DNA of 54,653 nucleotides. Origin: a virus. The DNA is taken from positions 1 to 54,653 of the IMG/VR virus record IMGVR_UViG_3300042698_000041; one strand, 5' to 3'. The position numbers and the translations under genes were made by a program. Shown here piece after piece: positions 1 to 46,592 of the stretch. The notes beneath the pieces are model-generated. The model was given only the letters and a program-made list of their open reading frames with translations, did no database searches and was not told the origin of the DNA. How positions within the stretch are numbered: the first letter of the stretch is position 1; each line of letters starts with the position of its first letter.

Positions 1-127
1 ACGCTGCGAAATGCATGTAGGAGAGGAGCCCATGTGAGCCATCCAGGCGAAGATGCACCCCCAGACTGGAGCCCCGAGGAGCAAAGTGCAGGGGTGGGGG
101 AGAAACTTGGACGGGCGGATCGGGTGG
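1..127. repeat. Left terminal inverted repeat (127 bp)
   Basis: Base-by-base comparison: 1..127 equals the reverse complement of 54527..54653. Identity breaks at 128 (a vs c). Contains RBS GGAGAGGAG and the first 31 codons of ORF 34..351. Confidence 0.95.
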
Positions 128-351
128 ACACCCAGAGCATGGTTCGAGAAGGAGTTGACCTTCTTGTGGGCTTGGCTCAGGAGTATCGGGTTCTTTCGGA
201 ACAGGGTGGCCCCGTCGATCAGATGGAGCACAACGCTGAACTGGCAGCCAAGCTGATCAGCAATCTTCCTGAGCCGCTCAAAAGCCTGATCGTCGTGGAG
301 CTTGCCCGGCAACTTGAGTGGTCCATGGCACGGAAAGGGAGTCACAACTGA
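34..351 (+). CDS. hypothetical protein (start lies inside the TIR)
   Basis: GTG start shortly after GGAGAGGAG. First 31 aa (MSHPGEDAPPDWSPEEQSAGVGEKLGRADRV) are identical to the right-end ORF. Confidence 0.6.
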   Translation: MSHPGEDAPPDWSPEEQSAGVGEKLGRADRVDTQSMVREGVDLLVGLAQEYRVLSEQGGPVDQMEHNAELAAKLISNLPEPLKSLIVVELARQLEWSMARKGSHN

Positions 352-3809: not shown

Positions 3810-3949
3810 ATCCATTTATTGGTTTCGGGGTGATTTGTGCCCTGATTGCCATGTCAACTGAGAATGGCCACGGGGCGTTCATCGGCGTGGCTTTCGTGTC
3901 CGGCCTTTTGGGTATCATCGTTGATCTGGCGCTCAAGGGGAAGCAATGA
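3806..3949 (+). CDS. small membrane protein
   Basis: Hand-translated 47-aa ORF with two hydrophobic segments. ATGA overlaps on both sides. Confidence 0.5.
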   Translation: MNPFIGFGVICALIAMSTENGHGAFIGVAFVSGLLGIIVDLALKGKQ

Positions 3950-4533
3950 CGGCCGTGTTTCCTGTCCACCCAGACGATGTAGACCAGCTGCTCAAGATCC
4001 GCCGATACCTGATCGGTTACCGGATCACCAACGGATGGACCCAGCAGGAGCTGTCCCAGCGGATCAGTGGCATGACCGGCAAGGGCTGGGTCTACGATCT
4101 GGAGGGAAGCAAGACCTGGCAGTGGAGGTTCTCCCGGCTTCAGGACTGGACGGTTCCCTTCGGTCTGCGGCTCAAGGCGCGGTTGCGCTTCAGTGGAGCC
4201 TTGGTTGATGATCCCCCGGTCTACGGTGACCCTGATGAACAGCGTGACCTGACCTTCGCCATAGACTCCCATCCCGAGGTTGCCCCCATGCTTTCCCTGT
4301 CACTAAAGCAGGAGGCCTGGCGCACGTGGCAGCGGATGTATCTGACCTCTGCCCTTTCCGTAGCGCGCAGGGAGCTGGGCATATCCACGGCTGATATGGG
4401 GGTTCGCCTGGGCGTCGGAGCCAGCGCTGTGCGCAATTGGGAGAACGTTGCCAACGAGATCATGTTGCCCAAGGTCTTGGCCTATGCCCGCGCCCTTGGT
4501 GGCGCCATAGAGCTGGGACTACAAGAGGCATAA
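3946..4533 (+). CDS. tandem XRE-family HTH DNA-binding protein (repressor candidate)
   Basis: Two Cro/C1-type HTH units: GWTQQELSQRISG and LGISTADMGVRLGVGASAVRNWEN. Confidence 0.75.
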   Translation: MTAVFPVHPDDVDQLLKIRRYLIGYRITNGWTQQELSQRISGMTGKGWVYDLEGSKTWQWRFSRLQDWTVPFGLRLKARLRFSGALVDDPPVYGDPDEQRDLTFAIDSHPEVAPMLSLSLKQEAWRTWQRMYLTSALSVARRELGISTADMGVRLGVGASAVRNWENVANEIMLPKVLAYARALGGAIELGLQEA

Positions 4534-5718: not shown

Positions 5719-6660
5719 ATGACTGCACCATCTGGAATCATCACCCGCATATGGACTGTGGACAAGAAGACAGCAGAGAAGTTCCTCAGCTTCGAGAAGC
5801 AGCCCCAGAAAGGGGTTAGGGGCACCAACCGCAAGCCCAGTGAAGACGTGGTCAACAGGTACGCCTTCGAGATGCTGGCGGGACACTGGGGCTTCTCGCA
5901 CCAGGGATTTGCCTTCATCGGCAAGATGGTCGATGGGGATGCCGACTTCAAGGACGGTGGGCAGCGTTGCCGGGCCATCATCCAGGCAGCCACGGTAGGC
6001 GCCTCATTCGGCGACCACACCATCCCCGCCAATCCCGACATCTCCATCGACGTCATGGTGACCGAGGGCCTGGACGAGGCCGCTTGGCTTGTGATGGACA
6101 TCGGCAAGGGGCGCAAGCCTGGAGATTTTCTGGGGATGGAGGGGGAAGTGAACACCAACGTGTTGTCTTCTGCCATCCAGTTGTGCTACCAGTACGAGAA
6201 CGAGCCTTTCGGGGTGGCGTTCTCGCGCCACAAGTGGAGCAAGCACAAGATGACCCCTACCATGCGCTATCAGTACCTGGAGAACAACCCCACTATCCGG
6301 CACGCCGTGTATGAGGGTGCCCGTCTACATAAGCACATGACAGTCTCGGCTGCCTCGGCTGCCTACTTCTTGGCGATCAAGGCCGGGGTCAAGCAGGACA
6401 AGGTCGATGAGTTCTTCGACTCTATGTTCAGTGGCACTGGTGAGAACTGGGTGAAGGGCAACCCGATCCTTCAGTTGCGCGAGATGCTCAGCAACGCTCG
6501 TAAGAGCCGTCGCAAGATGACTCGCGAGGAGCAACTGGCCCTGTTCATCAAGGCGTTCAACGCTTGGACGAACGGATCCGAGATCAAGAACCTGGTCTTC
6601 CGAACCAAGACCTCAAGCACTGGTGCAGCGCCGGAAGCGTTCCCTCGCTTCCAGCTTTGA
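5719..6660 (+). CDS. ParB/Srx-fold-like protein
   Basis: ATG after AAGGAGAGGAAA (aa 113 of ORF 5383..6660). FKDGGQRCRAII resembles the ParB box II GERRxRA / DGQHR motif. Confidence 0.5.
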   Translation: MTAPSGIITRIWTVDKKTAEKFLSFEKQPQKGVRGTNRKPSEDVVNRYAFEMLAGHWGFSHQGFAFIGKMVDGDADFKDGGQRCRAIIQAATVGASFGDHTIPANPDISIDVMVTEGLDEAAWLVMDIGKGRKPGDFLGMEGEVNTNVLSSAIQLCYQYENEPFGVAFSRHKWSKHKMTPTMRYQYLENNPTIRHAVYEGARLHKHMTVSAASAAYFLAIKAGVKQDKVDEFFDSMFSGTGENWVKGNPILQLREMLSNARKSRRKMTREEQLALFIKAFNAWTNGSEIKNLVFRTKTSSTGAAPEAFPRFQL

Positions 6661-15509: not shown

Positions 15510-17341
15510 AAAGTCCTTGTCCCGTAATTGAGGGATCGTGACTGGATGTCACTGTTGCCCTGAACGATGCGCACCACTCGCGAGTCGAGTTGCTCGTTAC
15601 CGATGAACACCAAGACCTGCGTGGTCCCACCGGAGAACAGCTTGTCCAATCCGGACTCTTGCATCAGCTGTGCGGCACGAGCCGGTTGGGTCAACGGGAT
15701 GATCACCTCAGGCCCTGCCTCACCGAAGACGCCCAAGGTCGGACGGTTGATGATGTCGCCATCGGCGTAACCCTTGACCTGGGCCCCACCGATCGCACCA
15801 CCGATGAAGGTGCGCTTGATCGTGTTCATGACCCCCAGCAGGTTCAAGGCGTTGACGGTTGCCTCATCCAGACCAGCAGCCAAAGCGTCCACCCCGATCT
15901 CGGTGGAGGAGATCCGCAGGGATGCCACGTCAACGATCTGACCGAACAGCTCATCGAACTTCTCGTCGGTGATCCCGGCCTGATGGGCAACGTTGCGAAG
16001 CTGGGCAATCTCCTGGTCGTAGAGGGCAGAAGCTTGCTGCGCCGTATATCCCTGTACCTGGATACGGTTGATGGCTCTGGCCTCCGCATCCTTGAGTCCC
16101 TTGATGAACGACTCGACATTGCGCCGACCCTTTTCTGTGTGGATATCAAGGGTCCTGCCGTTCTCCTGGAGGGACTCGGTGATGTTGTCCAGGCTCCGCT
16201 CGAAATCGATGTCCACCTGGATGTTCTCATAGGTCGCTTCGGACAGCGACTTGAGCCCTTTGGCCAGATCCTTGGCTGCCTTTTCCTCGCGCTTGGTGGC
16301 TGAGACAATTCCGTCAATCCCATTCTCAAGATCAAACCCTGTCTTGATCGCCTCTCGGTTGGCGTCTGGGATCTCCTTGCGCAGGATGCTGACGACGATG
16401 GCCAGAACGGGGCTCAGCTTGACCGCGAAATCCAGAAAATCGTGGAACAACCTGTTGATCTTGATAAGCAGGAAGATGACCCCGAACAGGGACATGGTCA
16501 AGAACTCAAGGATGTTGAACAGATCCCTTAGCGCCAGGGTCCCCTCCTGCCCCGAGTTCGCCAATCGCCGCAGGCCCTCAGAGACAGTGTTTAACAAGTC
16601 CCGCAAACCCACGGCGAGGATCTCGATGAACGGCTTGATGTCGAATACCGAATCATCAAGCATGTTGACAAAGGACTCCAGGCCTTCGGTCAAGGCTCCG
16701 GTCAGTGGGGCCACGTAAGTCGCGGCGACATCGAAGATGCGTTTGATGGTGGGAGCCAGCTGTGTGATCTTGGCTTCGATCAGATCCAGGGCCTGGATGA
16801 CGGCCGGAGCGAACTTGGAGGCAGCTTGCACCAAAGTGTTGCGTACGTTGGTAGCGAAGTCTCCAGCACGATCACGGACTTGTTCGAACTGGGCGGCCAG
16901 CAGGATGCCGAGCCCGGCGACCGCCAGGCCAAGAGCCGTGGTAACTGCCGCACCCAGGATCGCCCCAGCGGTCGGAGCGGCCAGCAGGATCCCACCGACG
17001 ATGGCTGCCTTGACCTCTGTGGGAAGTGCCGAGATGCCGTCGTCAAGAGCACTGGCCAATGATGAGGCGATGGAGATGAAGATGTTCTTGGGCCCGCCAC
17101 CACCGAACAGGAGGCTCTTCTTCAGTCCCCGGTTGGCACCCTCACCAGCACGTCTGCCCGCTTCCTCACCTGAGCGCCCTGCGCCCTGAGTCATACCGGT
17201 GTGGAAGGCTCTGGAGGTGGCCGCTTCCACTCGTTCCACGGCGACACGGACCTCGCGGTCCAGATCTCGGATGAATGGGCGCAAATCCGCCCGCACCTCG
17301 ATAAAGGCTTCACCCAAGCTCATAGCAGAATCATAGACCAA
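15506..17341 (-). CDS. tape measure protein
   Basis: 611 aa with Ala/Gly-rich TM segments, long helical regions and the C-terminal FGEAGPEVIIPL motif. Follows the chaperone pair. Confidence 0.85.
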   Translation of the reverse strand: MVYDSAMSLGEAFIEVRADLRPFIRDLDREVRVAVERVEAATSRAFHTGMTQGAGRSGEEAGRRAGEGANRGLKKSLLFGGGGPKNIFISIASSLASALDDGISALPTEVKAAIVGGILLAAPTAGAILGAAVTTALGLAVAGLGILLAAQFEQVRDRAGDFATNVRNTLVQAASKFAPAVIQALDLIEAKITQLAPTIKRIFDVAATYVAPLTGALTEGLESFVNMLDDSVFDIKPFIEILAVGLRDLLNTVSEGLRRLANSGQEGTLALRDLFNILEFLTMSLFGVIFLLIKINRLFHDFLDFAVKLSPVLAIVVSILRKEIPDANREAIKTGFDLENGIDGIVSATKREEKAAKDLAKGLKSLSEATYENIQVDIDFERSLDNITESLQENGRTLDIHTEKGRRNVESFIKGLKDAEARAINRIQVQGYTAQQASALYDQEIAQLRNVAHQAGITDEKFDELFGQIVDVASLRISSTEIGVDALAAGLDEATVNALNLLGVMNTIKRTFIGGAIGGAQVKGYADGDIINRPTLGVFGEAGPEVIIPLTQPARAAQLMQESGLDKLFSGGTTQVLVFIGNEQLDSRVVRIVQGNSDIQSRSLNYGTRTL

Positions 17342-28636: not shown

Positions 28637-29451
28637 GGAGTCCTCCGGAACACAGGCTTGCAGCGGCAGTTGATAACGTTCGATGGCTTCCCGGCTGGAT
28701 CCCCGGGCATCATCAACGCCTCCATGCTAACTATGAAAGGTTGGTTGACGGGGACAGTTTGACCATCGGCGCGAGCATGGCCAGGACGGGTGGCACTATC
28801 CTCCTTGGCATCCCAGCGTTTGAACAGCGGGGAAATGCGATCCTGTTGGATCCGAAGGGCCGCAGCGTAGGCCCCGAAGTTCCAGGCACGATGAACCTCA
28901 GTAACCGCCACCGTCTTGGCACGGGCAGGCCAGTTCTCAGAGCCGGTAACGTCGAGGACATGACGGACCGACCTGATCTGATCTTCTACTGTCCCACCTG
29001 CGGCAACCGTGCGCCCGAGCACATCCAGAATCTGGCGATACACCTCATCGGGGGTACGCACCATCAAATTCCTGGCGCGCTGGAGGACATCGGCGAGAAT
29101 GGGGTCATCGGGATTCCACGGCAACTTGACGTCAAGCTGTTTAGCAGCGTGGATCCAACCGACACGTGCCAGTGCTCGCAGCCGGTCCATAAGCTCATCG
29201 ACCTGCCGCTCCCACAGGGGAACCGTGGACCAGATGGCGCCCGGATCTGGTCCGATGCCGAATCTCTTGAAGCCTCCCAGGACGGCATCGATGGCCCGAT
29301 CAAGCCATTTGGTGTAAGCGTCCAGCATGAAGGCGGAGATGGCAGCCTCTGCGGCAGCCAGAACAACGGCCACCGCACCAACGCTGACCCCAGCTTCTGT
29401 AGTTTCTGCTGGGACACCGAGTGCGTTGGAGGGTGCTACGGGTGAGGTCAT
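28633..29451 (-). CDS. MuF-like minor capsid (head morphogenesis) protein
   Basis: C-terminal ...TRPGHARADGQ...NCRCKPVF is typical of SPP1 gp7/MuF proteins. Follows the portal. Confidence 0.8.
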   Translation of the reverse strand: MTSPVAPSNALGVPAETTEAGVSVGAVAVVLAAAEAAISAFMLDAYTKWLDRAIDAVLGGFKRFGIGPDPGAIWSTVPLWERQVDELMDRLRALARVGWIHAAKQLDVKLPWNPDDPILADVLQRARNLMVRTPDEVYRQILDVLGRTVAAGGTVEDQIRSVRHVLDVTGSENWPARAKTVAVTEVHRAWNFGAYAAALRIQQDRISPLFKRWDAKEDSATRPGHARADGQTVPVNQPFIVSMEALMMPGDPAGKPSNVINCRCKPVFRRTP

Positions 29452-31295
29452 ACGATCCCGGCTTCCCGCAGGCGTGCCGACATCAGCGACGGGTTGTGTT
29501 CGATACGGTGGATAAGCAGGCCCTTCACATAAGAATCGAGCACCGCAGCAACAAGGGAATTATCAGCTCCCAAACCATAGAGATGATGTCCACTATGGTC
29601 CCAGGCACCAGCAAGAAGCGCAGCAACCTGAGCCTCACCCACCGCGAGCCTGGTGTGAAGAGTAAGGATGTCACTATTGGGGAAGGCCTTACGCACGTTA
29701 GGGGTCAACAACTTCTTGTTGGCAAGTTCCAGCGCCCGGATGGCCATGCTGTTGGCTGCTGCATGAACGGCTGAAGGACCAACCGCGACAGAAGCTATCA
29801 GCTCAGATTCGGGTTGATTCGTGGTAGCCGTTGGCCTGGTATTCGGAGCGCCCTGGCCTGGACGCGGACCCTCAATCCCCTGCTTGGGCGTCGGAGGAGG
29901 CGGAGGTGGAGTAGTCAGCTCGGGCAAGGCTGTCTCGATCCCGGTGACCCCCACATACTCACGCACAGGCTCCACTGTGAACAGGGTCGGGTCACGCTCG
30001 ATGATCGTCTTGGTGAAGCGGACACCCGACTCTTCCTCGCTGGGGGCATCCACCTCACGGAAGTTGAATGTTCTACGAACTGCCTCACCTGAGAGCAGGC
30101 CTTCCTTGTAAAGGTTCAAGGTGTCAACGGCCTGATTGGCACTGGAGGCCAAGGGTGCCACGTCATACCAGTAGGTGTACCGGTTTGGGTCGCGCCCCAA
30201 AGTCTTCAAGGCTGGCTGGAGATACGCTGTGGTAAGAGCATCTACGATGCGTCCCATGAGCGGCATGACGCTCTTGACGATGAACTCCTCGCCCGCGAAC
30301 CACACCCCCCAGTGGTTCATTTCCTGGCTTCCGAGCTGGATCTCGATAGGCACGTTGATGCCGATGGCCAGGTTCTGCATTTCCTGGCGCTCCATGTCCG
30401 ACAGAGCATTGGACAGGACCGACTCGAACTTGATCGGCTGGATGCCTTTCATCGCCTCCAGCTCGGCCAGTGGCATGGGCCAGATGATCGGGGCGATCTG
30501 TGCAGCGGTTCCCTTGCCCTCCAGGTTGGAGGTCATCACCTCGAACAGCTGCTGGTAAACATCATCTACAGAGGTAGATTCTTCGTCGCCCTTGGGCACG
30601 GACAGGGACTCGGGGACTGGTAGTACAACAGCGTTGGCGATTCGGCTGTTGAACTGGCTTTTCTTGTAGAGCTGGATTTCACGCATCCGAGAAAGACAGT
30701 CCAGCAGCGCCCGGACGGGGGAGTCCGCAAGCAGCGGGCGTCGGGGGTGTGGAGTGTGAACACGGACGATGATGTCCCGAGAAGGGTTAAGCGTTTCACG
30801 GACGGCATGGCCAATGGTAACGATGACCTGCTTGCCTTGTCGGCGAACTTCGGAGGGGGCAACCACCATCCACTTGTCGGTGTAGGCGGGACGGGCGGAT
30901 AGCCCGATCAGGTAGCACTCACCGGCGACTGTCAGGGATTCAGCCAGTGCCCGCAGGATCTCGGCCTTGGCCGCTGGTCCTCCGAACAGGTTGTCGGCCA
31001 GCGCGGCGATCTCCTCATCGTTGTCCACCTCATCCTGGCGTACGCCGTTGTCATCGACGTTGGCAACAAAGATCCGGACCAGGGAACACGCATTACCAAC
31101 ATAGTCAACTGCATTGTGCAATTGCGAGTTGGTGTCGTAGAACTCCCAGGCGATTTTCTGCCAACCCTCATCGGTGAAGCGGTACCCCCGCCATGCCTCA
31201 TCGGAGAGCGTCATCCGGACCGCTGAAGCAATCATGCTCAAGGGGACTGGCTTACGCTCCAAGGTCTCAGGAGTCTTGCCGAACAACGCCATCAC
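29448..31295 (-). CDS. portal protein
   Basis: 615 aa, downstream of TerL and upstream of MuF. Typical size and order. Confidence 0.85.
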   Translation of the reverse strand: MMALFGKTPETLERKPVPLSMIASAVRMTLSDEAWRGYRFTDEGWQKIAWEFYDTNSQLHNAVDYVGNACSLVRIFVANVDDNGVRQDEVDNDEEIAALADNLFGGPAAKAEILRALAESLTVAGECYLIGLSARPAYTDKWMVVAPSEVRRQGKQVIVTIGHAVRETLNPSRDIIVRVHTPHPRRPLLADSPVRALLDCLSRMREIQLYKKSQFNSRIANAVVLPVPESLSVPKGDEESTSVDDVYQQLFEVMTSNLEGKGTAAQIAPIIWPMPLAELEAMKGIQPIKFESVLSNALSDMERQEMQNLAIGINVPIEIQLGSQEMNHWGVWFAGEEFIVKSVMPLMGRIVDALTTAYLQPALKTLGRDPNRYTYWYDVAPLASSANQAVDTLNLYKEGLLSGEAVRRTFNFREVDAPSEEESGVRFTKTIIERDPTLFTVEPVREYVGVTGIETALPELTTPPPPPPTPKQGIEGPRPGQGAPNTRPTATTNQPESELIASVAVGPSAVHAAANSMAIRALELANKKLLTPNVRKAFPNSDILTLHTRLAVGEAQVAALLAGAWDHSGHHLYGLGADNSLVAAVLDSYVKGLLIHRIEHNPSLMSARLREAGIV

Positions 31296-31627
31296 TGCCC
31301 CTTGCTGGTCCTGGTGGTCTCAAAATCAACAAGCCATCCGGCTGGATAGGCAACGGCGGGGACCGCCAGGATGAAGGCACCAACAGCAACCGCTGGCTTC
31401 ACCCCCATCCATGCCCAGGCTCCGGCAAGCGCCACAGCACAGGTGAACATCGACCACCAGACGCTGGCGCACCATGGACACCAGATGACCTTGGAGATGA
31501 AAGAGTTCGGGCCAAAAGTGGAATCAATCCAGACACGCAGAGGGATCGTGATGTCGTCGAAGTATGTCAACCTAGTCAGCCTGGCCGTAGCCAGCACCAG
31601 GACAACAAAAGCAACGAGGTAGATCAC
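31292..31627 (-). CDS. DUF1360-like membrane protein
   Basis: ARLTRLTYFDDIT.PLR ... CPWCASVWW pattern with TM helices. Confidence 0.55.
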   Translation of the reverse strand: MIYLVAFVVLVLATARLTRLTYFDDITIPLRVWIDSTFGPNSFISKVIWCPWCASVWWSMFTCAVALAGAWAWMGVKPAVAVGAFILAVPAVAYPAGWLVDFETTRTSKGQ

Positions 31628-31669
31628 GTAGATAAAGTTACCATCTGTAAGGCGCGCATGTTATCACCA

Positions 31670-31683
31670 GTTTCACGTGAAAC
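31670..31683. promoter_or_regulatory. parS-like palindrome copy 1 (GTTTCACGTGAAAC)
   Basis: Perfect 14-bp palindrome read directly. Flanked by a...g. Confidence 0.75.
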
Positions 31684-31722
31684 GTAGGGCGCAAGATGGT
31701 TCGGCATTATGCCGATGACGAT

Positions 31723-31736
31723 GTTTCACGTGAAAC
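31723..31736. promoter_or_regulatory. parS-like palindrome copy 2 (GTTTCACGTGAAAC)
   Basis: Perfect 14-bp palindrome. Flanked by t...c. Confidence 0.75.
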
Positions 31737-31745
31737 CAAGTTCTA

Positions 31746-31761
31746 TGTTTCACGTGAAACA
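31746..31761. promoter_or_regulatory. parS-like palindrome copy 3 (TGTTTCACGTGAAACA, full 16-mer)
   Basis: Perfect 16-bp palindrome matching the bacterial parS consensus TGTTNCACGTGAAACA. Abuts the TerL stop codon. Confidence 0.8.
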
Positions 31762-33267
31762 TCACCCCCAGTGGTTCAACTCCCCGATGATCGGCATCTT
31801 GTCGGTGGGCACATATCCCAGCGATGGTGCCGAAAAGTTCAGCGGCGAAATGACCCGAGACCTACGCCGCTCGCCTTCCATCAGGTGCCGAACGGCATGG
31901 ACAAGGGCATCAAGCCGGTCCGGCGAAGCCTTTGATGAGAGCGGATCGAAGGTCAGCATCTGGGTTTCCAGCTTGTCGAAAACGCCCAGGTGATGCACCC
32001 TGCCTTGCGAATACCTCATCGCCACCGGCTCGGCACGAAGCTTCTTTCCCTGGTTGGAGAACACCGGCACCAGCGGCGGATTGATGACTTCGGACGGGAA
32101 CACTCCGGCGCGCTGAAGCTCCCGGAAGGCATCGGTGAAAACTTGATGCATCCAGGCTTTGCCGAGGTTGGATTCGTATACGAGAGTGTCGCAGTGGTAG
32201 CGCTCGAAGACTCTCCAGGCATGCATAGCGGCATCCCGCCCTGCCAGTTTCGTCGTCTCATCGGCAATGACATAGGCATGGTCCTTGTAATCCCGGCTGA
32301 CCACGACGACACCCATTTCGTCGCCATCCTCATCGCCGGTCAGGCCCGGATCAACACCTACGGTCCGGTGGGCTACCCGATCGGGTCCGATCTCCAATCT
32401 GTTGGCATGGATGACTGAGTAGCTGAACAGAGCCCCTGTGACATCGTCCAGGAGTTCTCCATACAACTCCTGACGGCCAAGTGCCGTGCCCTCGTAAGTC
32501 TGCCGAAGCTCCTCAACGGCATCCTCAGACAGATTGATCATGTTGTCGAAGGTGCTTCCCCGGACAATGCAGACCTTCCATTTGTCCGGGTCGGACACCC
32601 AGTTCTTGAGCAACATAATTGGCTTAGGCGTCGTAGTAACCAATGCCCTGGGCTTGTCCCCGGGAATGTCGGCACGAAGAGCCGGACGGATGCCCTCGCG
32701 CCAGGTGTCCTCGGGTGCCGCCCATTTGATCGGCTCATCCAGCCACACATCGGCCAGGTTCTTGGACCGGGCGGCATCGATCGTGGCGCCGGTGAGGTGA
32801 ATGACCGCACCGGTTTCCAGCAGCCGGACATAGGGCTTGGGGCTCTTGGTGAAGGTGTATTTGTTCTCTACGCTATCGATCTTGCGGTTGCTGATGACCT
32901 CCTCGAACCCCATCCGTTGCAACACCCGGATCACCCCGGAGGGTCCTTCGGCACAAGAGGCCACAGCATCGGAGATGTTGTAAGCCATGATGAGACGCTC
33001 GGTGGGGAACCCGGAGGAGTCGTAGGGATACTCAAGGGTCCGGGAGACAATCCACTCGGCACCGGAACGGGTCTTGCCGAAACCACGTCCGGCCAGCATC
33101 AGGCAAATGGACCAGTCTCCTTTGGGAGGCATTTGCTCCGGGCGTGCCACCCAGAACCATTCCTCCCGTGCGATCATCTCCAAGACTTGGGGATCAAGCG
33201 AGTCAAGGAACTCGTGACGAAGATGCTTCGGCATCTGCATCACGCGCTGCTTGAGACTGAGCCCCAT
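31762..33267 (-). CDS. terL: terminase large subunit
   Basis: Walker A GRGFGKTRSG, VWLDEP Walker B-like motif, 501 aa. First gene of the late operon. Confidence 0.9.
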   Translation of the reverse strand: MGLSLKQRVMQMPKHLRHEFLDSLDPQVLEMIAREEWFWVARPEQMPPKGDWSICLMLAGRGFGKTRSGAEWIVSRTLEYPYDSSGFPTERLIMAYNISDAVASCAEGPSGVIRVLQRMGFEEVISNRKIDSVENKYTFTKSPKPYVRLLETGAVIHLTGATIDAARSKNLADVWLDEPIKWAAPEDTWREGIRPALRADIPGDKPRALVTTTPKPIMLLKNWVSDPDKWKVCIVRGSTFDNMINLSEDAVEELRQTYEGTALGRQELYGELLDDVTGALFSYSVIHANRLEIGPDRVAHRTVGVDPGLTGDEDGDEMGVVVVSRDYKDHAYVIADETTKLAGRDAAMHAWRVFERYHCDTLVYESNLGKAWMHQVFTDAFRELQRAGVFPSEVINPPLVPVFSNQGKKLRAEPVAMRYSQGRVHHLGVFDKLETQMLTFDPLSSKASPDRLDALVHAVRHLMEGERRRSRVISPLNFSAPSLGYVPTDKMPIIGELNHWG

Positions 33268-33316: not shown

Positions 33317-33532
33317 ATGATCATGAACGACTTCAAATACCTGCACATCGTCGAGACCTTGCAGAACCGCATTGCTACCGGCGAGTACCCAGATGGGAAA
33401 CTACCCAGCACCAGACAACTGCGGGAAGAGTTCGACGCCAGCTACGGCTCGGTGCGCTCGGCCATTCTGATCCTGAAGGCCACGGGCGTGGTGGAGGGAA
33501 GGCAGGGGCAAGGGGTCTACGTGGTTGAGTGA
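33317..33532 (+). CDS. GntR-type winged-helix DNA-binding protein (DNA-binding domain only)
   Basis: LPSTRQLREEFDASYGSVRSAILILKATGVVEGRQGQGVYV is the classic GntR N-terminal domain pattern. Divergent from terL. Confidence 0.7.
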   Translation: MIMNDFKYLHIVETLQNRIATGEYPDGKLPSTRQLREEFDASYGSVRSAILILKATGVVEGRQGQGVYVVE

Positions 33533-34668: not shown

Positions 34669-36261
34669 ATGACTAGGTTTAACAAGCGTCCATCGGGGCT
34701 TATCGTCGCGAACCAGCCAATCGTGTCGACCGCAAATCCCACGGCACGCACTGGCAACAGCGCCCCTGGGTTCACCCGCGATGCCGAAGGTGAGCTTTTC
34801 CTTCTGGCCGTGAGCAACTTCGTGGGCCAGGACATGCACTATGAGAAGGGTGTCGCTCGTGACGCCAGGTTCAAGAGCCTGGTCGCACAGGTGGCGGTGT
34901 CCAATCCCGAGTGGATGAATCGCTTCCTGCCTTGGCTTCGCAACGAGGCCAACATGCGGACCGCCTCCCTGGTGGCCGCTGTTGAGACCGTCCGGGCACA
35001 GCTCAAGGCACCAGGCGGTCCTATCACAGGATTCGGTCGAGCCCTGATCAACTCGGTGCTGACTCGTGCCGATGAGCCAGGTGAGATGCTCGGTTACTGG
35101 AAGGCGACGTATCCAGGCGAGCAAATCCCCAAGCCGATCAAGCGTGGCATCGCCGATGCTGTGGCACGCCTGTACACGGAGCGCAACACGCTCAAGTACG
35201 ACACGGCATCGCACGGATTCAGGTTCGGTGACGTGCTGGAACTAACCCACGCGGCACCGGACAAGGGATACCAACGGGCGCTGTTCAAGCACCTCATCGA
35301 CCGGCGCCATGGACGTGGCGGCACGTCCGAGTCGTATGTCGGACTGCCCATGATCATCGAGAACATGCGGGTCCGTTCGCAAGTCGATACCTTCGGCAAC
35401 CACGAGATCCTGCTGCGTTCCGACGTGCTCAAGGCCGCTGGGATGACCTGGGAGGATGCTCTGTCCCTGGCCGGAAACAAGCTGCCCAAGAACCAGCTGT
35501 GGGAAGCCCTGATCCCGAACATGGGGTACATGGCGCTGCTTCGCAACCTGCGCAACTTCGATGAGGCGGGGGTGTCGGACAAGACTGCCACCTGGGCCGG
35601 GGTGGAACTGGCAAGCCCGGAGAAGGTTGCCCACTCCCGGCAGCTGCCGATGCGGTTCCTGTCGGCCTTCCGCTCGGTGTCCAATGTTCGGTGGCACGTG
35701 GCACTGGAGCACGCACTTCAGGCGTCGTTGAACAACATCCCGGAGTTCAAGGGTCGCACGTTGATCCTGATCGACACCTCGGGGTCAATGTCAAGTCAGT
35801 TCGGCAAGGACACGCAGTTGTGTCTGTGGGACGCGGCTGCGATCTTCGGTTGTGCCTTGGCCCAGCGATGCGAAAGTGCCAATGTGGTCAGCTTCTCCAA
35901 CTTGACCAAGCCCTTCCCGCTTCCCCGGGGAGAGTCTTTGATCCTGTCGGTGGACCGTTTCCGCAAGGGATACTTTCTCAACGGCGGCACCGACACTGAA
36001 GGTGCCGTGCGGACCCACTTCCACGGTCACGATCGGGTCGTCATCCTTACCGATGAGCAGGCCAATCACCACAGTGCACTACATGTGGCGTCCAGTGTTC
36101 CTATCCACATCCCGGTGATCACGTTCAACCTTGCCGGGTATCGGGTGGGTCACGCGCCTTCTGGCACCCCGACCAGGATCACCATTGGTGGCCTGTCGGA
36201 TCAGGCGTTCAAGCTGCTCCCTGTGCTTGAGAGCCGCGCCAAGGGTCAGTGGCCGTTCTGA
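34669..36261 (+). CDS. rsr: Ro60/Rsr ortholog (TROVE domain + vWA domain)
   Basis: 530 aa. N-terminal FTRDAEGELFLLAVSNFVGQDMHYEKG and HEAT-like repeats. C-terminal vWA with MIDAS LILIDTSGSMS. Confidence 0.8.
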   Translation: MTRFNKRPSGLIVANQPIVSTANPTARTGNSAPGFTRDAEGELFLLAVSNFVGQDMHYEKGVARDARFKSLVAQVAVSNPEWMNRFLPWLRNEANMRTASLVAAVETVRAQLKAPGGPITGFGRALINSVLTRADEPGEMLGYWKATYPGEQIPKPIKRGIADAVARLYTERNTLKYDTASHGFRFGDVLELTHAAPDKGYQRALFKHLIDRRHGRGGTSESYVGLPMIIENMRVRSQVDTFGNHEILLRSDVLKAAGMTWEDALSLAGNKLPKNQLWEALIPNMGYMALLRNLRNFDEAGVSDKTATWAGVELASPEKVAHSRQLPMRFLSAFRSVSNVRWHVALEHALQASLNNIPEFKGRTLILIDTSGSMSSQFGKDTQLCLWDAAAIFGCALAQRCESANVVSFSNLTKPFPLPRGESLILSVDRFRKGYFLNGGTDTEGAVRTHFHGHDRVVILTDEQANHHSALHVASSVPIHIPVITFNLAGYRVGHAPSGTPTRITIGGLSDQAFKLLPVLESRAKGQWPF

Positions 36262-42292: not shown

Positions 42293-42365
42293 TGGTCACT
42301 AGCACAATAGGCAGTGCACTGGACTGTTAATCCGGTAGATCCCAGTTCGAGTCTGGGGTGGCCAG
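42293..42365 (+). tRNA. tRNA-Asn (anticodon GTT)
   Basis: Acceptor tggtcac/gtggcca. Anticodon arm ctgga-ctGTTaa-tccgg. T-arm cccag-TTCGAGT-ctggg. Confidence 0.85.
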
Positions 42366-42367
42366 CT

Positions 42368-42470
42368 GGGAACGTAGCTTAGAAAGGCGCAATGACGTCT
42401 GAGCGCCGAGGAATAGAGCGCTGGCCCCTTAAGCCAGTGTGCGCGGGTTCAAGTCCCGCCGTTCCCGCCA
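42368..42470 (+). tRNA. tRNA-Lys(CTT)-like gene with C33 and a hairpin insertion in the D-loop, CCA encoded
   Basis: Perfect acceptor gggaacg/cgttccc plus G plus CCA. Anticodon arm ctggc-ccCTTaa-gccag. D stem gctt/gagc encloses a 35-nt loop containing hairpin ggcgc/gcgcc. Confidence 0.55.
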
Positions 42471-42486
42471 AACAAAAAGAGGTGAC

Positions 42487-42609
42487 ATGACGCGGCTCAA
42501 GATATGGTTCAACCGCAGGTGGCCGTTGTACCGGCTGTGCATGCATCCCTGGTGTTTTCGGGCGCACAACTGGGACAACCAATGCTTACGGCATTACGGC
42601 GGTCCATGA
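42487..42609 (+). CDS. hypothetical small protein
   Basis: ATG after AAAAGAGGTGAC. 40 aa, Trp/Cys/Arg-rich. Confidence 0.4.
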   Translation: MTRLKIWFNRRWPLYRLCMHPWCFRAHNWDNQCLRHYGGP

Positions 42610-42618
42610 GGAATCCAG

Positions 42619-42795
42619 CATGATACCAAGTCCGAATGCCTGTCGTCACTGCGATGAAGATGAGCGTGGACATGCCCAGCTCTGGCATCCGGTGGTGGGA
42701 TTCCACCGATGGGAGGCACCCACTGACGAGGTGCGCCTGATGCGCATGAAGGCAAGAAGATTCTTTCGCCTCAAGAGGATGGGTCATGAAAACTG
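42619..42795 (+). CDS. hypothetical small protein (CxxC, His-rich)
   Basis: 58 aa, MIPSPNACRHCDEDERGHAQLWHP... Confidence 0.45.
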
Positions 42796-42950
42796 AGCCT
42801 TGTTGGATATGCGGGGAACCCATCTATTGGATCCCCTTGGACTGTGAAGACTGCAAAGGCGTATATGTACACGTGAATCAATCCGATAGTGTTCATGACG
42901 CCATTGGCCAGCAGAAAGGAGGGGAACATGACATGGACTTAGTCGATTGA
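42786..42950 (+). CDS. hypothetical small zinc-ribbon-like protein
   Basis: 54 aa with CWIC ... CEDC. Confidence 0.45.
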   Translation: MKTEPCWICGEPIYWIPLDCEDCKGVYVHVNQSDSVHDAIGQQKGGEHDMDLVD

Positions 42951-42963
42951 CTAAGGAGGTGCC

Positions 42964-43344
42964 GTGTCCCGCACGGACAAGACGCGACCATACTGGGTGC
43001 AGCTTCGCGACCCCCTGTTCCCTTGGCCTATCAGGGAACACCATTATCACCACGGCTGCTTCGCAACCACACCTGAATGCGACATTGACTTCCCAGTGCC
43101 AGGGCCAAGACGCTATGGGCCACTAAGATCTTGTGAATATTGGCCTCGATACAAGGACAACGACAAGATCTATGGGAGGCCGAGGCACAGACGCAGCCTT
43201 AAATCCTTTCAGGACGGCAGGGCGCGTGCCGACCTTCGGCGCCTGCGAGCCGAATGGCTCAAAGAGCCCGACCGCGAGCAGATTGACTCCACCGAGAACG
43301 CACCGACAAGCCGTTGGCGTTGGCGCCGATGGTACTGGGATTAA
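42964..43344 (+). CDS. hypothetical protein (TDKTRP family, paralog of 43698..43931)
   Basis: GTG after TAAGGAGGTG. The N-terminus MSRTDKTRPYWV is shared with 43698..43931. Confidence 0.55.
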   Translation: MSRTDKTRPYWVQLRDPLFPWPIREHHYHHGCFATTPECDIDFPVPGPRRYGPLRSCEYWPRYKDNDKIYGRPRHRRSLKSFQDGRARADLRRLRAEWLKEPDREQIDSTENAPTSRWRWRRWYWD

Positions 43345-43360
43345 CCGAAGGGAGGTGGCC

Positions 43361-43447
43361 ATGGAGGTTCTATTATGGATCGGCGTCATCGGGCTTATCG
43401 CCGGTTGCTGCATCTACGTGATCAAGAAAGCTAAGAGGCGCCCGTGA
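43361..43447 (+). CDS. small membrane peptide
   Basis: ATG after GGGAGGTGG. 28 aa, MEVLLWIGVIGLIAGCCIYVIKKAKRRP. Confidence 0.4.
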   Translation: MEVLLWIGVIGLIAGCCIYVIKKAKRRP

Positions 43448-43450
43448 ACC

Positions 43451-43819
43451 ATGGAGGAAATCAATAACTTCATATTGCAATTGCTGGCCACCATCACTTG
43501 TGGCCGAGAGAAATCTTGCCTTGCCAAGAGGAAATATCTTGACGAGGAAAAAGCTCACGAAAGGGCGCAGGCTCTGTCCCAGCGGCCCAACCAGCGTCAT
43601 AAGGTGGAGCCGTACGGATGTCCGTGGTGTTTCGGATGGCATGTGGGCAGACCCCTGAGCCGCCCAAGGACCCTGTACTTGTCGATGGGGGTAAGGGGTG
43701 TCAAAGACGGACAAGACCAGGCCTTGGAGGGTGAATCAGACCGATCCCCTCAACCAGAAGTTCCGCCGAGTGGTTGCCTGGGAGCTGGAATGGTTCTACA
43801 AGCGGATGGGTCAGGTTAA
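43451..43819 (+). CDS. hypothetical protein (3' extent doubtful)
   Basis: YGCPWCFGWHVGRP motif. The last 122 nt overlap 43698..43931. Confidence 0.4.
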   Translation: MEEINNFILQLLATITCGREKSCLAKRKYLDEEKAHERAQALSQRPNQRHKVEPYGCPWCFGWHVGRPLSRPRTLYLSMGVRGVKDGQDQALEGESDRSPQPEVPPSGCLGAGMVLQADGSG

Positions 43820-43931
43820 GGGCTGCTGGTGTTGCAGCCAGAAACATCATTATGCCCAGGAGCAGAAGAGCACCAGGGTTAAATGGAACAGGCAGCGCCG
43901 TGATCTGGAGAAAGGAGGATGGCGCGAATGA
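43698..43931 (+). CDS. hypothetical protein (TDKTRP family)
   Basis: GTG start. N-terminus MSKTDKTRPWRV. Confidence 0.5.
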   Translation: MSKTDKTRPWRVNQTDPLNQKFRRVVAWELEWFYKRMGQVKGCWCCSQKHHYAQEQKSTRVKWNRQRRDLEKGGWRE

Positions 43932-44038
43932 AGATCATAGTATGGACACTGGTGATGATGAGCCGCGTCATCCTCGTCGGCTTGATCTTCTGGGGGTTCA
44001 TGCTGTACACCCGAAATGAATGGGCTATGTGGTATTAG
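43928..44038 (+). CDS. small membrane peptide
   Basis: ATGA overlap. 36 aa, MKIIVWTLVMMSRVILVGLIFWGFMLY... Confidence 0.4.
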   Translation: MKIIVWTLVMMSRVILVGLIFWGFMLYTRNEWAMWY

Positions 44039-44047
44039 GGAGAAAGC

Positions 44048-44146
44048 ATGGAATGGAAACACTGGAAGATCTATTTCATCTCGGTGGGGATCATCGCCGC
44101 TCTAGGGATATTGATCATTTGCTCCCGGATGTTCGGCTCCCACTGA
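44048..44146 (+). CDS. small membrane peptide
   Basis: 32 aa, MEWKHWKIYFISVGIIAALGILIICSRMFGSH. Confidence 0.4.
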   Translation: MEWKHWKIYFISVGIIAALGILIICSRMFGSH

Positions 44147-44152
44147 CGAAAT

Positions 44153-44236
44153 ACCCCCGTAGCTCAGCGGGATGAGCGCGCCACCCCAACCGTCAAGGTC
44201 ACGGCGAGGACACAGGTTCGAATCCTGTCGGGGGTA
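44153..44236 (+). tRNA. tRNA-like gene with enlarged, non-canonical anticodon arm
   Basis: Perfect acceptor acccccg/cgggggt, D-arm gctc-agcgggat-gagc and T-arm acagg-TTCGAAT-cctgt. The central arm cgcc...ggcg is 28 nt with no standard 7-nt loop. Confidence 0.45.
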
Positions 44237-44425
44237 CGGAGATGTCAAACCTGAAAAAACGTCATCGAGTATAGGGTAAGGGCGGCCCCACAAGCCTCAG
44301 ATCCTTTACCTGGGGTGCCGTTTCTGCGTCTCCAACAACCCCATGGCATCGTTGAAAACTCTCGCTCCGGTCGAGACGCCCCGACGGCCCGATGCCATGG
44401 GGTTTGTACATGGAAAGGGTAATTT

Positions 44426-44716
44426 ATGGAGCAAGATCCAGATACTCCCAACTACCGGGAGATGGTTGACCTTGTTAATCTCAAAGGCATCTATGTCACC
44501 GAGCATCCCAACGGCGCCATGAGCGTGCGGCTTTGGTGTGGCAACTGCGCCAAGCCATTGCACTGGGATGACCGGCACTGGGGCAACACGCCCTTCCTGA
44601 CCTTGTTGGTCAAGATGGCCGATGCCCACAGAGAAACCGAGTGTCCCCATCCGAAGGGGCCGTTCCTGGACGAATGGCATCCCCGCATTGATGAGAGAGC
44701 CAGCTGGGAGAGGTGA
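44426..44716 (+). CDS. hypothetical protein
   Basis: 96-aa ORF with a CGNC...H...C...H pattern. Confidence 0.5.
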   Translation: MEQDPDTPNYREMVDLVNLKGIYVTEHPNGAMSVRLWCGNCAKPLHWDDRHWGNTPFLTLLVKMADAHRETECPHPKGPFLDEWHPRIDERASWER

Positions 44717-44720
44717 CTTA

Positions 44721-45164
44721 GTGATCATCGCAGTGACGGGGTGGAGACATCACACTGACGCAGCCTTCATCCGTAGCTGCCTAATGGCGAAACTGGTAAC
44801 AGCGCGGGACATCTGGGGAAAAGAGCTGCACATACGTGTCGGTGATGCCACGGGAGCTGACGAAATAACAGCCAACTGGTGCAAAAGGCGTCAGGAGATC
44901 GGTGAGGGCTTGACCTTCCATGTCTTCGCCGCCAGGCGCCATCCCAGCGGTGCATTGATGCCAGGGGCTGGGCCACAACGCAATCGAGAAATGCTGCAAG
45001 GCAAAGGTGATCCGTACAAGGGACCCACCGATTTGCTACTGGGCTTCCCGAATCCGAACGCACGCTCAACGGTTCCGGGCTCGGGAACATGGGGTTGCAT
45101 GATGGAGGCAACCCTGATGGGGATACGGGTGGAGATCCCACCGTATATACGATCTGGGGATTAA
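44721..45164 (+). CDS. SLOG/DUF2493-like protein
   Basis: GTG after GGGAGAGGTGA. VTGWRHHTD...VGDATGADEITANWC...GAGPQRNREM follows the DUF2493 layout. Confidence 0.55.
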   Translation: MIIAVTGWRHHTDAAFIRSCLMAKLVTARDIWGKELHIRVGDATGADEITANWCKRRQEIGEGLTFHVFAARRHPSGALMPGAGPQRNREMLQGKGDPYKGPTDLLLGFPNPNARSTVPGSGTWGCMMEATLMGIRVEIPPYIRSGD

Positions 45165-45562
45165 TGAAGTTACTCACCAAACTGAAAGTGTTTGCCGCCA
45201 CGGGAATCCTGCTGATTGCCGCAGGCTTCGCCTACGGGATCTTCGACAAGAACATGACCAGTCCTTTCAGCAACCGGTTTGACGACGTGGAGGTAGGACT
45301 CCATGTCGTCTATTCGCCACCGGATGCAAGACCCGTTTTGGCTGTTCAACTCTCTATGACTCTGCCGGTCATCCAGTCGGTCGAGTCGTCTCCCTGGGAT
45401 GCGACGATCAAGGTTCCCCATGCCACCAGAGTGATTCTTTCCGTGGTGCAGGGCAGACGTAACGAGACCGCGTGCACCATTCTGAGCAAGTCCGGCACGA
45501 TTCTGGACCACCAAGAGTTGTACGGCCCCGGGACAATCTCCTGCCAACATCTGGTGACCTGA
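45164..45562 (+). CDS. MmpS-like membrane-anchored protein (paralog 1)
   Basis: Met26 of ORF 45089..45562 (TAATG junction). N-terminal TM plus beta-rich domain with the ...CTILSKSG... / ...ISC pattern. Confidence 0.45.
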   Translation: MKLLTKLKVFAATGILLIAAGFAYGIFDKNMTSPFSNRFDDVEVGLHVVYSPPDARPVLAVQLSMTLPVIQSVESSPWDATIKVPHATRVILSVVQGRRNETACTILSKSGTILDHQELYGPGTISCQHLVT

Positions 45563-45563
45563 T

Positions 45564-45962
45564 ATGACACAGAAGCAGAAGACACGTTTGGTCCCCACGG
45601 CAGTGGTCCTGGCCTTCCTGTTCTTGATCCCTGTGATCTTCATCCCGGTGATCAGGTCCGGTCTGAACAAGGACCGCACCATCTGGGTGACAGTGGACTG
45701 GGAGCCCAACCGCAGGCACGGGCAGGGAAGTGGCGTCAGCATACTCCTGAACATCACAGGTAACCCTCCAAAGGCGGAATACCTGTACAACTCGGCATAT
45801 GTACGCTCATTTACCCTCAAACCCGGGACAGTTGTCGACGTGGTGGCCAAGCAGGAGACAGGGACCTACCTACGCTGCCTGATAAGCCAGGTGGGAGGCA
45901 TGGAGAACAAGGTGGATATCCCAGGCAAGGGGACGGTCCCATGCAGACTGACAGTGGTGTAG
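45564..45962 (+). CDS. MmpS-like membrane-anchored protein (paralog 2)
   Basis: N-terminal TM plus beta-rich domain with ...LRCLISQVGG... / ...PCRLTVV. Confidence 0.45.
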   Translation: MTQKQKTRLVPTAVVLAFLFLIPVIFIPVIRSGLNKDRTIWVTVDWEPNRRHGQGSGVSILLNITGNPPKAEYLYNSAYVRSFTLKPGTVVDVVAKQETGTYLRCLISQVGGMENKVDIPGKGTVPCRLTVV

Positions 45963-46381
45963 TAGGAAAGCGCCAAGCCGTCATCGTGGACATCGACGGC
46001 ACCTTGACACACATGGGTAACCGGCATCCCTGGGACATGGCCAAGGTCTTGGAGGACAGGCCCAACCTTCCTGTGATCCAAACTGTGCATGCCCTGGTGC
46101 GCTCGGGGCTTGTGGTGGTGTACATGACGGGACGCTGGGAACGCTCCAGACAGGACACGGTGCGGTGGTTGCAACTGCATACGGCTTACCCGTACGAGAA
46201 GCTGCTGATGCGCGACGAAGAAGATAATCGGCAGAACTGGGAGCTGAAATACGAGTTGTATCAGCATCATGTGGCACCGACCTATGATGTTCAGATCGTT
46301 CTTGACGACCAGGAGGAAGTGGTGTCGATGTGGCGCAACGATCTTGGCCTTCCCTGTTTCCAGGTGGCTCCAGGGATATGA
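45941..46381 (+). CDS. HAD-superfamily phosphatase (polynucleotide 3'-phosphatase-like)
   Basis: DxDxT motif VIVDIDGTLT. MTGRWERSR, then LLMRDEEDNRQNWELK and VLDDQ fit a small capless HAD phosphatase. Confidence 0.6.
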   Translation: MQTDSGVVGKRQAVIVDIDGTLTHMGNRHPWDMAKVLEDRPNLPVIQTVHALVRSGLVVVYMTGRWERSRQDTVRWLQLHTAYPYEKLLMRDEEDNRQNWELKYELYQHHVAPTYDVQIVLDDQEEVVSMWRNDLGLPCFQVAPGI

Positions 46382-46467
46382 AACTACATACCAAGGTTGT
46401 GCTGTGGCTGCTGGTGGCTGTTGTCGTGGTTTCCACGGTCGCCCATCAGGCATCTCAGATGCCATAA
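46378..46467 (+). CDS. small membrane/secreted peptide
   Basis: ATGA overlap with the HAD gene stop. 29 aa, MKLHTKVVLWLLVAVVVVSTVAHQASQMP. Confidence 0.35.
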   Translation: MKLHTKVVLWLLVAVVVVSTVAHQASQMP

Positions 46468-46470
46468 CAG

Positions 46471-46500
46471 AAGGCCCCCGGGATTGGAACCGGGGGCCTT
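46471..46500. terminator. bidirectional terminator hairpin
   Basis: aaggcccccgg / ccgggggcctt, 11-bp perfect stem with an 8-nt loop, between + strand genes and the - strand tRNA. Confidence 0.6.
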
Positions 46501-46520
46501 CGTGTGTCCGGGGAGGACAG

Positions 46521-46592
46521 TGGCGGGAACACGAATCGAACGTGCATCTCCAGGGTTATGAGCCCTGTGCTCTGCCCTTAAGCTATCCCGCA
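46521..46592 (-). tRNA. tRNA-Met (anticodon CAT), initiator-type
   Basis: Reverse complement reads tgcggga-ta-gctt-aagggca-gagc-a-caggg-ctCATaa-ccctg-gagat-gcacg-TTCGATT-cgtgt-tcccgcc-a. It has the GGG/CCC anticodon stem and a 1:72 mismatch. Confidence 0.75.

Follow-up and report, generated by a model that had tools for sequence, protein, structure and literature searches.

A cluster of three chromosomal-type parS sites beside the terminase gene of a metagenomic phage

The spacer behind terL and its parS sites

The DNA analysed here, a window of 54,653 bp, represents a phage of about 55 kb with 58% GC. Its late operon runs leftward and is opened by the gene for a T4-type terminase large subunit (terL, 31762–33267, minus strand), which was identified by tblastn and by Pfam matches to Terminase_6N (2.9e-15) and Terminase_6C (1.4e-6). 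Upstream of terL, its strand carries no terS-like gene. The genes that follow terL encode a small membrane protein of 111 residues (31292–31627, minus strand, GTG start at 31627; phrog_781), the portal protein (29448–31295, minus strand; tblastn and a weak Pfam Phage_portal match), and a MuF-like protein, in this order. The preliminary description of this DNA had placed a DUF1360-like gene beside the spacer (31628–31761, minus strand) that separates terL from the membrane-protein gene. The spacer has the reported length of 134 bp, from the terL stop at 31762 to the ORF start at 31627, but the likeness of the 111-residue product to DUF1360 is weak and below threshold (E 0.0013, 19.1 bits, under the Pfam cut-off of 21).

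The spacer contains three exact copies of the 14-bp palindrome GTTTCACGTGAAAC, to which no strand is assigned. Copy 1, the one closest to terL, is a perfect 16-mer TGTTTCACGTGAAACA (31746–31761) with the 14-mer at 31747–31760. Copy 2 (31723–31736) and copy 3 (31670–31683) are exact as 14-mers, and match the chromosomal-type parS consensus TGTTNCACGTGAAACA at 15 of 16 positions (31722–31737) and 14 of 16 positions (31669–31684), respectively, as compared with 16 of 16 for copy 1. The centre-to-centre distance is 24 bp between copies 1 and 2 and 53 bp between copies 2 and 3, and the three sites together span 92 bp at a single locus. Copy 1 begins one base past the terL stop codon, so that the minus strand reads TGA followed directly by TGTTTCACGTGAAACA. 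Reading of the sequence and a pattern search thus bear out what had been noticed at first sight, namely the three occurrences, the full 16-mer at 31746–31761, and the identity with chromosomal parS; they also agree that the window holds no further copy, as no fourth GTTTCACGTGAAAC site was found on either strand of the 54,653 bp with up to two mismatches. Three occurrences compare with 0.18 expected, and three or more were obtained in none of 100 dinucleotide shuffles. Heptamer half-sites number nine in the window (simulated mean, 6.6) and six of the nine lie inside the cluster; a count of heptamers against simulation over the whole window gave no enrichment of half-sites outside it.

The window corresponds to JGI contig Ga0502594_05598842. 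Run DRR519670, assembled independently in Logan, contains an identical stretch of 5.5 kb that includes the cluster, which is therefore no assembly artefact. A single genotype, identical across the two datasets, is seen at the cluster, so that purifying selection cannot be demonstrated there. A search of IMG/VR for the same three-site geometry matched one unrelated contig, and the window itself is absent from that database.

Between copies 2 and 3 lies a small inverted repeat, CGGCA-TTA-TGCCG (31702–31714, no strand assigned), which has no U-tract. On the other side of copy 3, which ends 2 nt upstream in the sense of the minus strand, is the motif GTGATAACAT (31658–31667, minus strand). Its counterpart in relatives of the phage is TGATAACAT, TGATATCAT or TGATATGAT, and it is found about 30 nt 5' of the membrane-protein gene in all relatives that were aligned (L003, L005, L015, L152, L153, and L194). 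Lying just past terL within the late operon, the conserved motif resembles an extended −10 promoter and may serve as a promoter for the downstream head genes. A sigma-70 promoter scan of the spacer gave nothing above background and did not detect this putative −10 motif.

Phage type, relatives, and gain of the cluster

The terL product is at most 37% identical to the terL products of isolated phages (tblastn), and megablast of the window against INPHARED (50,697 phage records) gave no match. The portal protein has homologues, annotated as portal, in 877 phage records (tblastn). By organism name, nearly all of these phages have actinobacterial hosts, including Mycobacterium, Gordonia, Microbacterium, Arthrobacter, and Streptomyces. 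For this reason the host is probably an actinobacterium, and would therefore probably use exactly this parS. Other genes identified in the window encode RusA, an HTH_3 protein, a TROVE/Ro60 protein, a VWA protein, a D5-type primase-helicase, a Cas4-like exonuclease, and a GntR-type winged-helix protein. The phage does not resemble the protein-primed podoviruses of the Salasmaviridae: it has a T4-type terL, an HK97-type portal, a MuF protein, and the D5-type primase-helicase, and neither gp16 nor PolB was found.

The window contains ten tRNA-like genes, two of which have abnormal anticodon loops according to ARAGORN. The tRNA-like cluster (37531–46592) is flanked by the genes for the TROVE/Ro60-like protein (34669–36261, Pfam 6e-19) and the VWA protein (40291–41403), and the three elements could form a module akin to Rsr and Y RNA.

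No integrase was found among the larger ORFs scanned with Pfam and PHROG, and no close relatives were found in 185,579 species-representative genomes or among the plasmids of PLSDB. The phage therefore looks non-integrating; it is seen only in soil and rhizosphere-type metagenomes. Partition genes were searched for by tblastn with B. subtilis Spo0J and Soj sequences as probes, and no Spo0J-like or Soj-like match was found in the window.

Relatives were gathered from IMG/VR, metagenomes, and GTDB genomes through locus searches based on terL and on a head protein of 606 residues; queries with the ParB-like protein or the D5 primase found no relatives in IMG/VR. The set includes contigs whose terL is 80–85% identical and one whose head protein is 87% identical. 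The junction between terL and the membrane-protein gene is kept in about 16 distinct contigs. None of them has a parS site at the junction, and none was found across about 0.49 Mb of structural modules when one to two mismatches were allowed. Alignment shows that the spacer of the relatives is short and ends in the conserved motif described above. In the window, about 80–90 additional bases with the three sites separate this motif from the terL stop; the extra DNA, which also holds the small inverted repeat, covers approximately 31670–31761 and is missing from all relatives, whose homology resumes at 31670. As about 16 relatives share the junction and none has a site, the comparison indicates that the cluster is a recent, lineage-specific gain of about 80–90 bp. 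Because the sites are missing from every close relative examined, whatever function they have is dispensable for the lineage.

Lack of conservation in related phages had been named in the preliminary description as counting against a role for the sites, and the sites are indeed not conserved among the junction-sharing relatives. We read this as recent gain, not as evidence against function, because a distant relative has gained parS sites of its own. This contig (L072), which shares its sample with the relative L015, is syntenic with the window, with a terL of 34% and a portal of 28% identity. It carries three exact parS sites (L072 7888–7925 and 8506–8519), all of which lie in frame, encoding V-S-R-E-T, in linkers of a MuF-domain ORF. 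L072 gained its three sites independently, and their embedding in coding sequence points to selection on the DNA sequence.

The relatives also allow the phage-encoded candidates for a parS-binding protein to be judged. The preliminary description had proposed the ParB-like protein encoded at 5719–6660 (plus strand) as one possible binder. This product has at least 59 homologues, phage proteins that are all uncharacterised, in which a DG.QR.RA motif is invariant (DGGQRxRA in the window protein). Searches for Pfam or NCBIfam ParB, ParB-HTH or TIGR00180-type domains gave no match, nor did a PDB profile search; TIGR00180, or PF02195 together with PF17762, as in a canonical ParB, was thus not found. 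A canonical ParB combines an N-terminal CTPase domain with a parS-specific HTH and a domain for dimerisation. Its AF2 model is confident (pLDDT 89). Against PDB the model has weak matches, to Noc (E 0.097) and to Srx (sulfiredoxin, E 0.8), and against BFVD strong ones (E 1e-12 to 1e-8), to DUF262, GmrSD-N, and DndB-like proteins and to proteins of mycobacteriophages that bear the names 'ParB-like nuclease domain' or 'HTH DNA binding domain'. One homologue weakly matches the DGQHR model. We therefore assign the product to the ParB/Srx superfamily (DGQHR/DUF262/DndB-like) and do not regard it as a canonical ParB. Its gene is 25 kb away from the parS sites. The protein is 60% conserved in the contig JADMIO011683295.1 (L142), whose terL junction (L152) has no parS. 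The DUF262/DndB-like fold, the missing ParB and HTH matches, and the conservation in L142/L152 led us to reject it as a dedicated parS partner, and it is probably not part of the system. Genes of this family always adjoin RusA.

The GntR-type protein (33317–33532, plus strand; Pfam 4.9e-14) has 71 residues and consists of the winged-helix domain only. Its gene is the first of a rightward operon that diverges from terL. The protein is 54–84% identical in several relatives that have no sites, and was rejected as the binder for this reason. The HTH_3 protein of 195 residues (3946–4533) is 58% conserved in L142, the one relative in which the regions encoding it and the ParB/Srx-like protein were fetched. 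As all three candidates are conserved in relatives without sites, no phage protein appears to track the presence of the sites.

parS clusters in other phages and mobile elements

The 16-mer TGTTTCACGTGAAACA serves as parS in Mycobacterium and B. subtilis, and a single copy confers stability, dependent on Soj and Spo0J, on an otherwise unstable plasmid (PMC2346475). Mycobacterial chromosomes have two reported parS sites, and Streptomyces coelicolor has 24 parS sequences (PMC2346475). The cluster in the window resembles the origin-proximal clusters of chromosomes in sequence, which is identical, and in the grouping of its sites (PMC2346475), but it lies in a viral late operon, not on a chromosome, and neither near oriC nor near parAB. 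It also differs from the parABS systems of plasmid-prophages, whose centromere sites have been located on phage genomes (PMC7157519): its sites have the host consensus, ParA and ParB genes adjoining them were not found, and the window gave no tblastn match to Soj or Spo0J.

For comparison with other viruses, IMG/VR was scanned for two exact 14-mers 1–30 nt apart. Such pairs occur in at least 120 contigs, which represent at least 46 lineages at the DNA level, with GC contents of 0.26–0.73 among the matches listed. A control palindrome of the same composition, GTTTCAGCTGAAAC (CACGTG changed to CAGCTG), gave no pair match in IMG/VR. Among the matches listed (IMG/VR loci L022–L141), most loci carry two to six sites, and a Spo0J-like gene is nearby at one locus only. 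Pfam annotation of 97 ORFs that flank or contain these clusters, again among the matches listed, identified phi29-type gp16 packaging ATPases (nine), portal proteins (five), phi29 gp9 (four), prohead proteases (three), terminases (three), and several capsid proteins; neither ParA nor ParB was found among the 97. Head and packaging modules are thus the usual home of such clusters among the IMG/VR matches listed.

In several unrelated lineages the sites are read in frame as (D/N)VSRET repeats. They are located in the C-terminal tail of the portal protein (L066 1807–2099; L101 1765–1802), between the portal and protease domains (L130 6958–7019), or in the tail of a prohead protease (L135 8016–8056). 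Like the case of L072, this embedding suggests that the DNA motif is under selection within coding sequence. Megablast of three of the parS-bearing lineages (L131, L130, and L065) against INPHARED gave no match, and we found no report in the literature of host-type parS in phages other than phi29.

The phi29 genome carries parS sites, and Spo0J of the host has been implicated in segregating this genome into the prespore (PMC2731898, describing Meijer et al. 2005); Spo0A boxes suppress the lytic cycle (PMC2731898; PMC9437464). The phi29 record (L208, NC_011048) contains four consensus sites within two mismatches, against 0.07 expected, and the literature reports five. One of them (17243–17258) starts one base past the stop codon of the gene 16 packaging ATPase (17242), reading TAA followed by TGTTTCACGTGGAACA, and lies just before the terminator TD1. 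The window resembles phi29 in having several host-consensus parS copies in or next to late genes, in a genome where partition genes of its own were not detected. The resemblance extends to the position of a 16-mer directly after a packaging-ATPase stop codon (17242 and 17243–17258 in phi29; the terL stop at 31762 and 31761–31746 in the window). The preliminary description had called placement within a packaging and late operon unusual, and both the IMG/VR clusters and this phi29 site contradict that view. There are differences as well. phi29 is a protein-primed podovirus of 19 kb from a low-GC endospore former, with four to five sites spread over 8 kb that act together with Spo0A boxes, whereas the window belongs to a phage of about 55 kb and 58% GC that has head-gene homologues in actinobacterial phages and its three sites within 92 bp.

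Another precedent is SGI1, in which parS mimics hijack the ParABS system of the IncC plasmid (PMC10954446). Like the window, SGI1 is a mobile element that has no Par proteins of its own and carries the parS of another replicon, by whose ParAB it is partitioned. It differs in that it is an integrative mobilisable element, that the parS mimicked is that of a plasmid and not of a chromosome, and that its hijack additionally makes it incompatible with the helper plasmid. Plasmid-prophages such as P1, N15 (sopABC), and the mycobacteriophages with parABS encode both ParA and ParB of their own and use phage-specific centromere sequences. The centromere sites of N15 are dispersed, and some are in late regions. 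As for chromosomes, Lin and Grossman in 1998 and Livny in 2007 reportedly described parS clusters close to the origin.

Possible loading of host ParB and the alternatives

We propose that the three sites are a captured host-type centromere, on which the chromosomal ParB of the host, a CTP-dependent clamp, would nucleate and from which it would spread over the unintegrated phage DNA. Phage DNA covered in this way would be coupled to the ParABS machinery of the host and to its ParA-driven segregation, possibly with loading of SMC. We put the probability of this reading at about 0.6. Its likeliest payoff would be a carrier state or 'entrapment' like that of phi29, in which a non-replicating or stalled phage genome is retained and segregated into daughter cells or spores. 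Since the late operon is silent before late transcription, ParB complexes could persist on it without disturbing the early genes.

The preliminary description had suggested that the phage genome could load either host ParB or its own ParB-like protein. The phage protein was rejected as described above, and host ParB is the most economical and the best-supported candidate, because the sites are identical to parS, because phi29 provides a precedent, and because exact pairs recur in at least 46 unrelated viral lineages with none for the control palindrome. Host ParB may also be the one factor that all parS-bearing phages could share, as no ParA or ParB is encoded by the flanking ORFs and a Spo0J-like gene accompanies a single locus among the matches listed. 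Binding, spreading, and payoff are what we infer from these comparisons of sequence.

The same sequence evidence also applies to a ParB sink in the lytic cycle. Here the replicated cluster would titrate host ParB or recruit SMC, disturbing chromosome segregation and division of the host or compacting the phage DNA, and nothing would be inherited. Such a sink would suit a phage that looks lytic, given that neither an integrase nor close relatives in species-representative genomes and PLSDB were found, and the case of SGI1 shows that a replicon can be destabilised when mimics of the parS of its own Par system are amplified (PMC10954446). However, a lytic phage would gain little by disturbing segregation in a cell that it is soon to lyse, and phi29, the only phage case studied experimentally, points to segregation. 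We consider a sink unlikely.

The spacer could alternatively act through RNA or transcription, with the identity to parS being secondary. Copies 1 and 2 are predicted to pair into an RNA hairpin of 17 bp directly after terL, and the RNA of the spacer has a predicted fold of −54.6 kcal/mol (z = −5.4 against shuffles). A structure like this at the 3' end of terL could be a terminator, an attenuator, an RNA-stability element or an RNase III site. Another possibility is that the head-gene promoter is occluded by ParB or a different protein bound to copy 3; this copy is 2 nt away from the conserved motif, and in M. bovis BCG a parS that overlaps a promoter has been suggested to regulate gidB (PMC2346475). 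The strong predicted hairpin has no U-tract or T-run behind it, however, and a terminator scan of the spacer gave no match, which is not the picture of an intrinsic terminator, a GC-rich hairpin with a U-tract after it. An arbitrary hairpin need not be an exact parS three times, and the relatives manage with a short spacer that has no such hairpin. The exact pairs in at least 46 lineages, with none for the control palindrome, would also be left unexplained. A purely transcriptional or RNA-based role is thus quite unlikely.

Two explanations remain, a passenger or packaging signal and a set of operators for a phage protein, and how the sites are distributed among relatives weakens both. The cluster could be a neutral passenger, derived from origin-proximal DNA of the host through illegitimate recombination, or a pac or terminase recognition site, the latter having been raised in the preliminary description. 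It adjoins terL, is a recent insertion missing from relatives, and is seen as one genotype, all of which would suit such an origin. But three intact and perfect copies, together with the independent acquisition of sites by L072 and many other phages, argue against a neutral passenger. As to packaging, relatives whose terL is 64–85% identical have no sites, so that these cannot be their shared pac site, and the sites are missing likewise from all relatives with a terL of 44–85% identity. The ends of the contigs of the window phage and of one relative coincide about 31 kb away from terL. We regard a passenger or packaging signal as quite improbable. GntR operators are typically GT-Nx-AC palindromes. 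The notion that the sites are operators for the ParB/Srx-like, GntR-like or HTH_3 protein has in its favour this operator form and the DGGQRxRA motif and ParB/Srx-type fold of the first, but it is very improbable, as all three proteins are conserved in relatives without sites, the first has no ParB-type match, and unrelated phages with this motif have no such protein in common close to their sites.

Use of host parS by a phage has been known since phi29, and the element in the window is an ordinary canonical parS. New here is a tight, recently acquired triple cluster in a very different phage with a different probable host phylum. The more novel lead is that parS clusters, a number of which are embedded in coding sequence, occur widely and convergently in the head modules of phages. 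It is possible, although we hold this with considerable doubt, that capture of the host centromere is a general convergent strategy of non-integrating tailed phages beyond phi29 and the endospore formers. In the present phage, host ParAB and possibly SMC would then tether and segregate the genome as a heritable carrier state or through entrapment in exospores. Selection would favour placement in head and packaging genes, even in frame as VSRET within the tails of portal, protease, and MuF proteins, since a ParB clamp would last only on DNA that is not being transcribed. If host ParB does load on the sites, a seemingly lytic phage could, with no need to integrate, be passed on to descendants or lie hidden in dormant cells. 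This would bear on pseudolysogeny, on the persistence of soil phages, and on the practice of calling phages "virulent" from gene content alone, and the recurrence in at least 46 unrelated viral-contig lineages makes the question general and testable.

The ends of the window deserve a separate remark. Positions 1–127 are the exact reverse complement of 54527–54653, and the two ends diverge immediately inside the repeat. A length of 127 is a common k of metaSPAdes, and the inverted terminal overlap is therefore probably an overlap of the assembly graph with a longer inverted repeat or palindrome, which is missing from the contig. Exact-protein look-ups for the two terminal ORFs (34–351, plus strand; 53832–54620, minus strand) returned no record. 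These ORFs have the same GTG start inside the repeat, and share the ribosome-binding site and about 31 codons. JADMIO011683295.1 (54.3 kb) begins at approximately the same homologous place, and many contigs of relatives are 52–56 kb long. The ends could correspond to a linear genome with terminal inverted repeats, to a large palindrome, or to an invertible junction.
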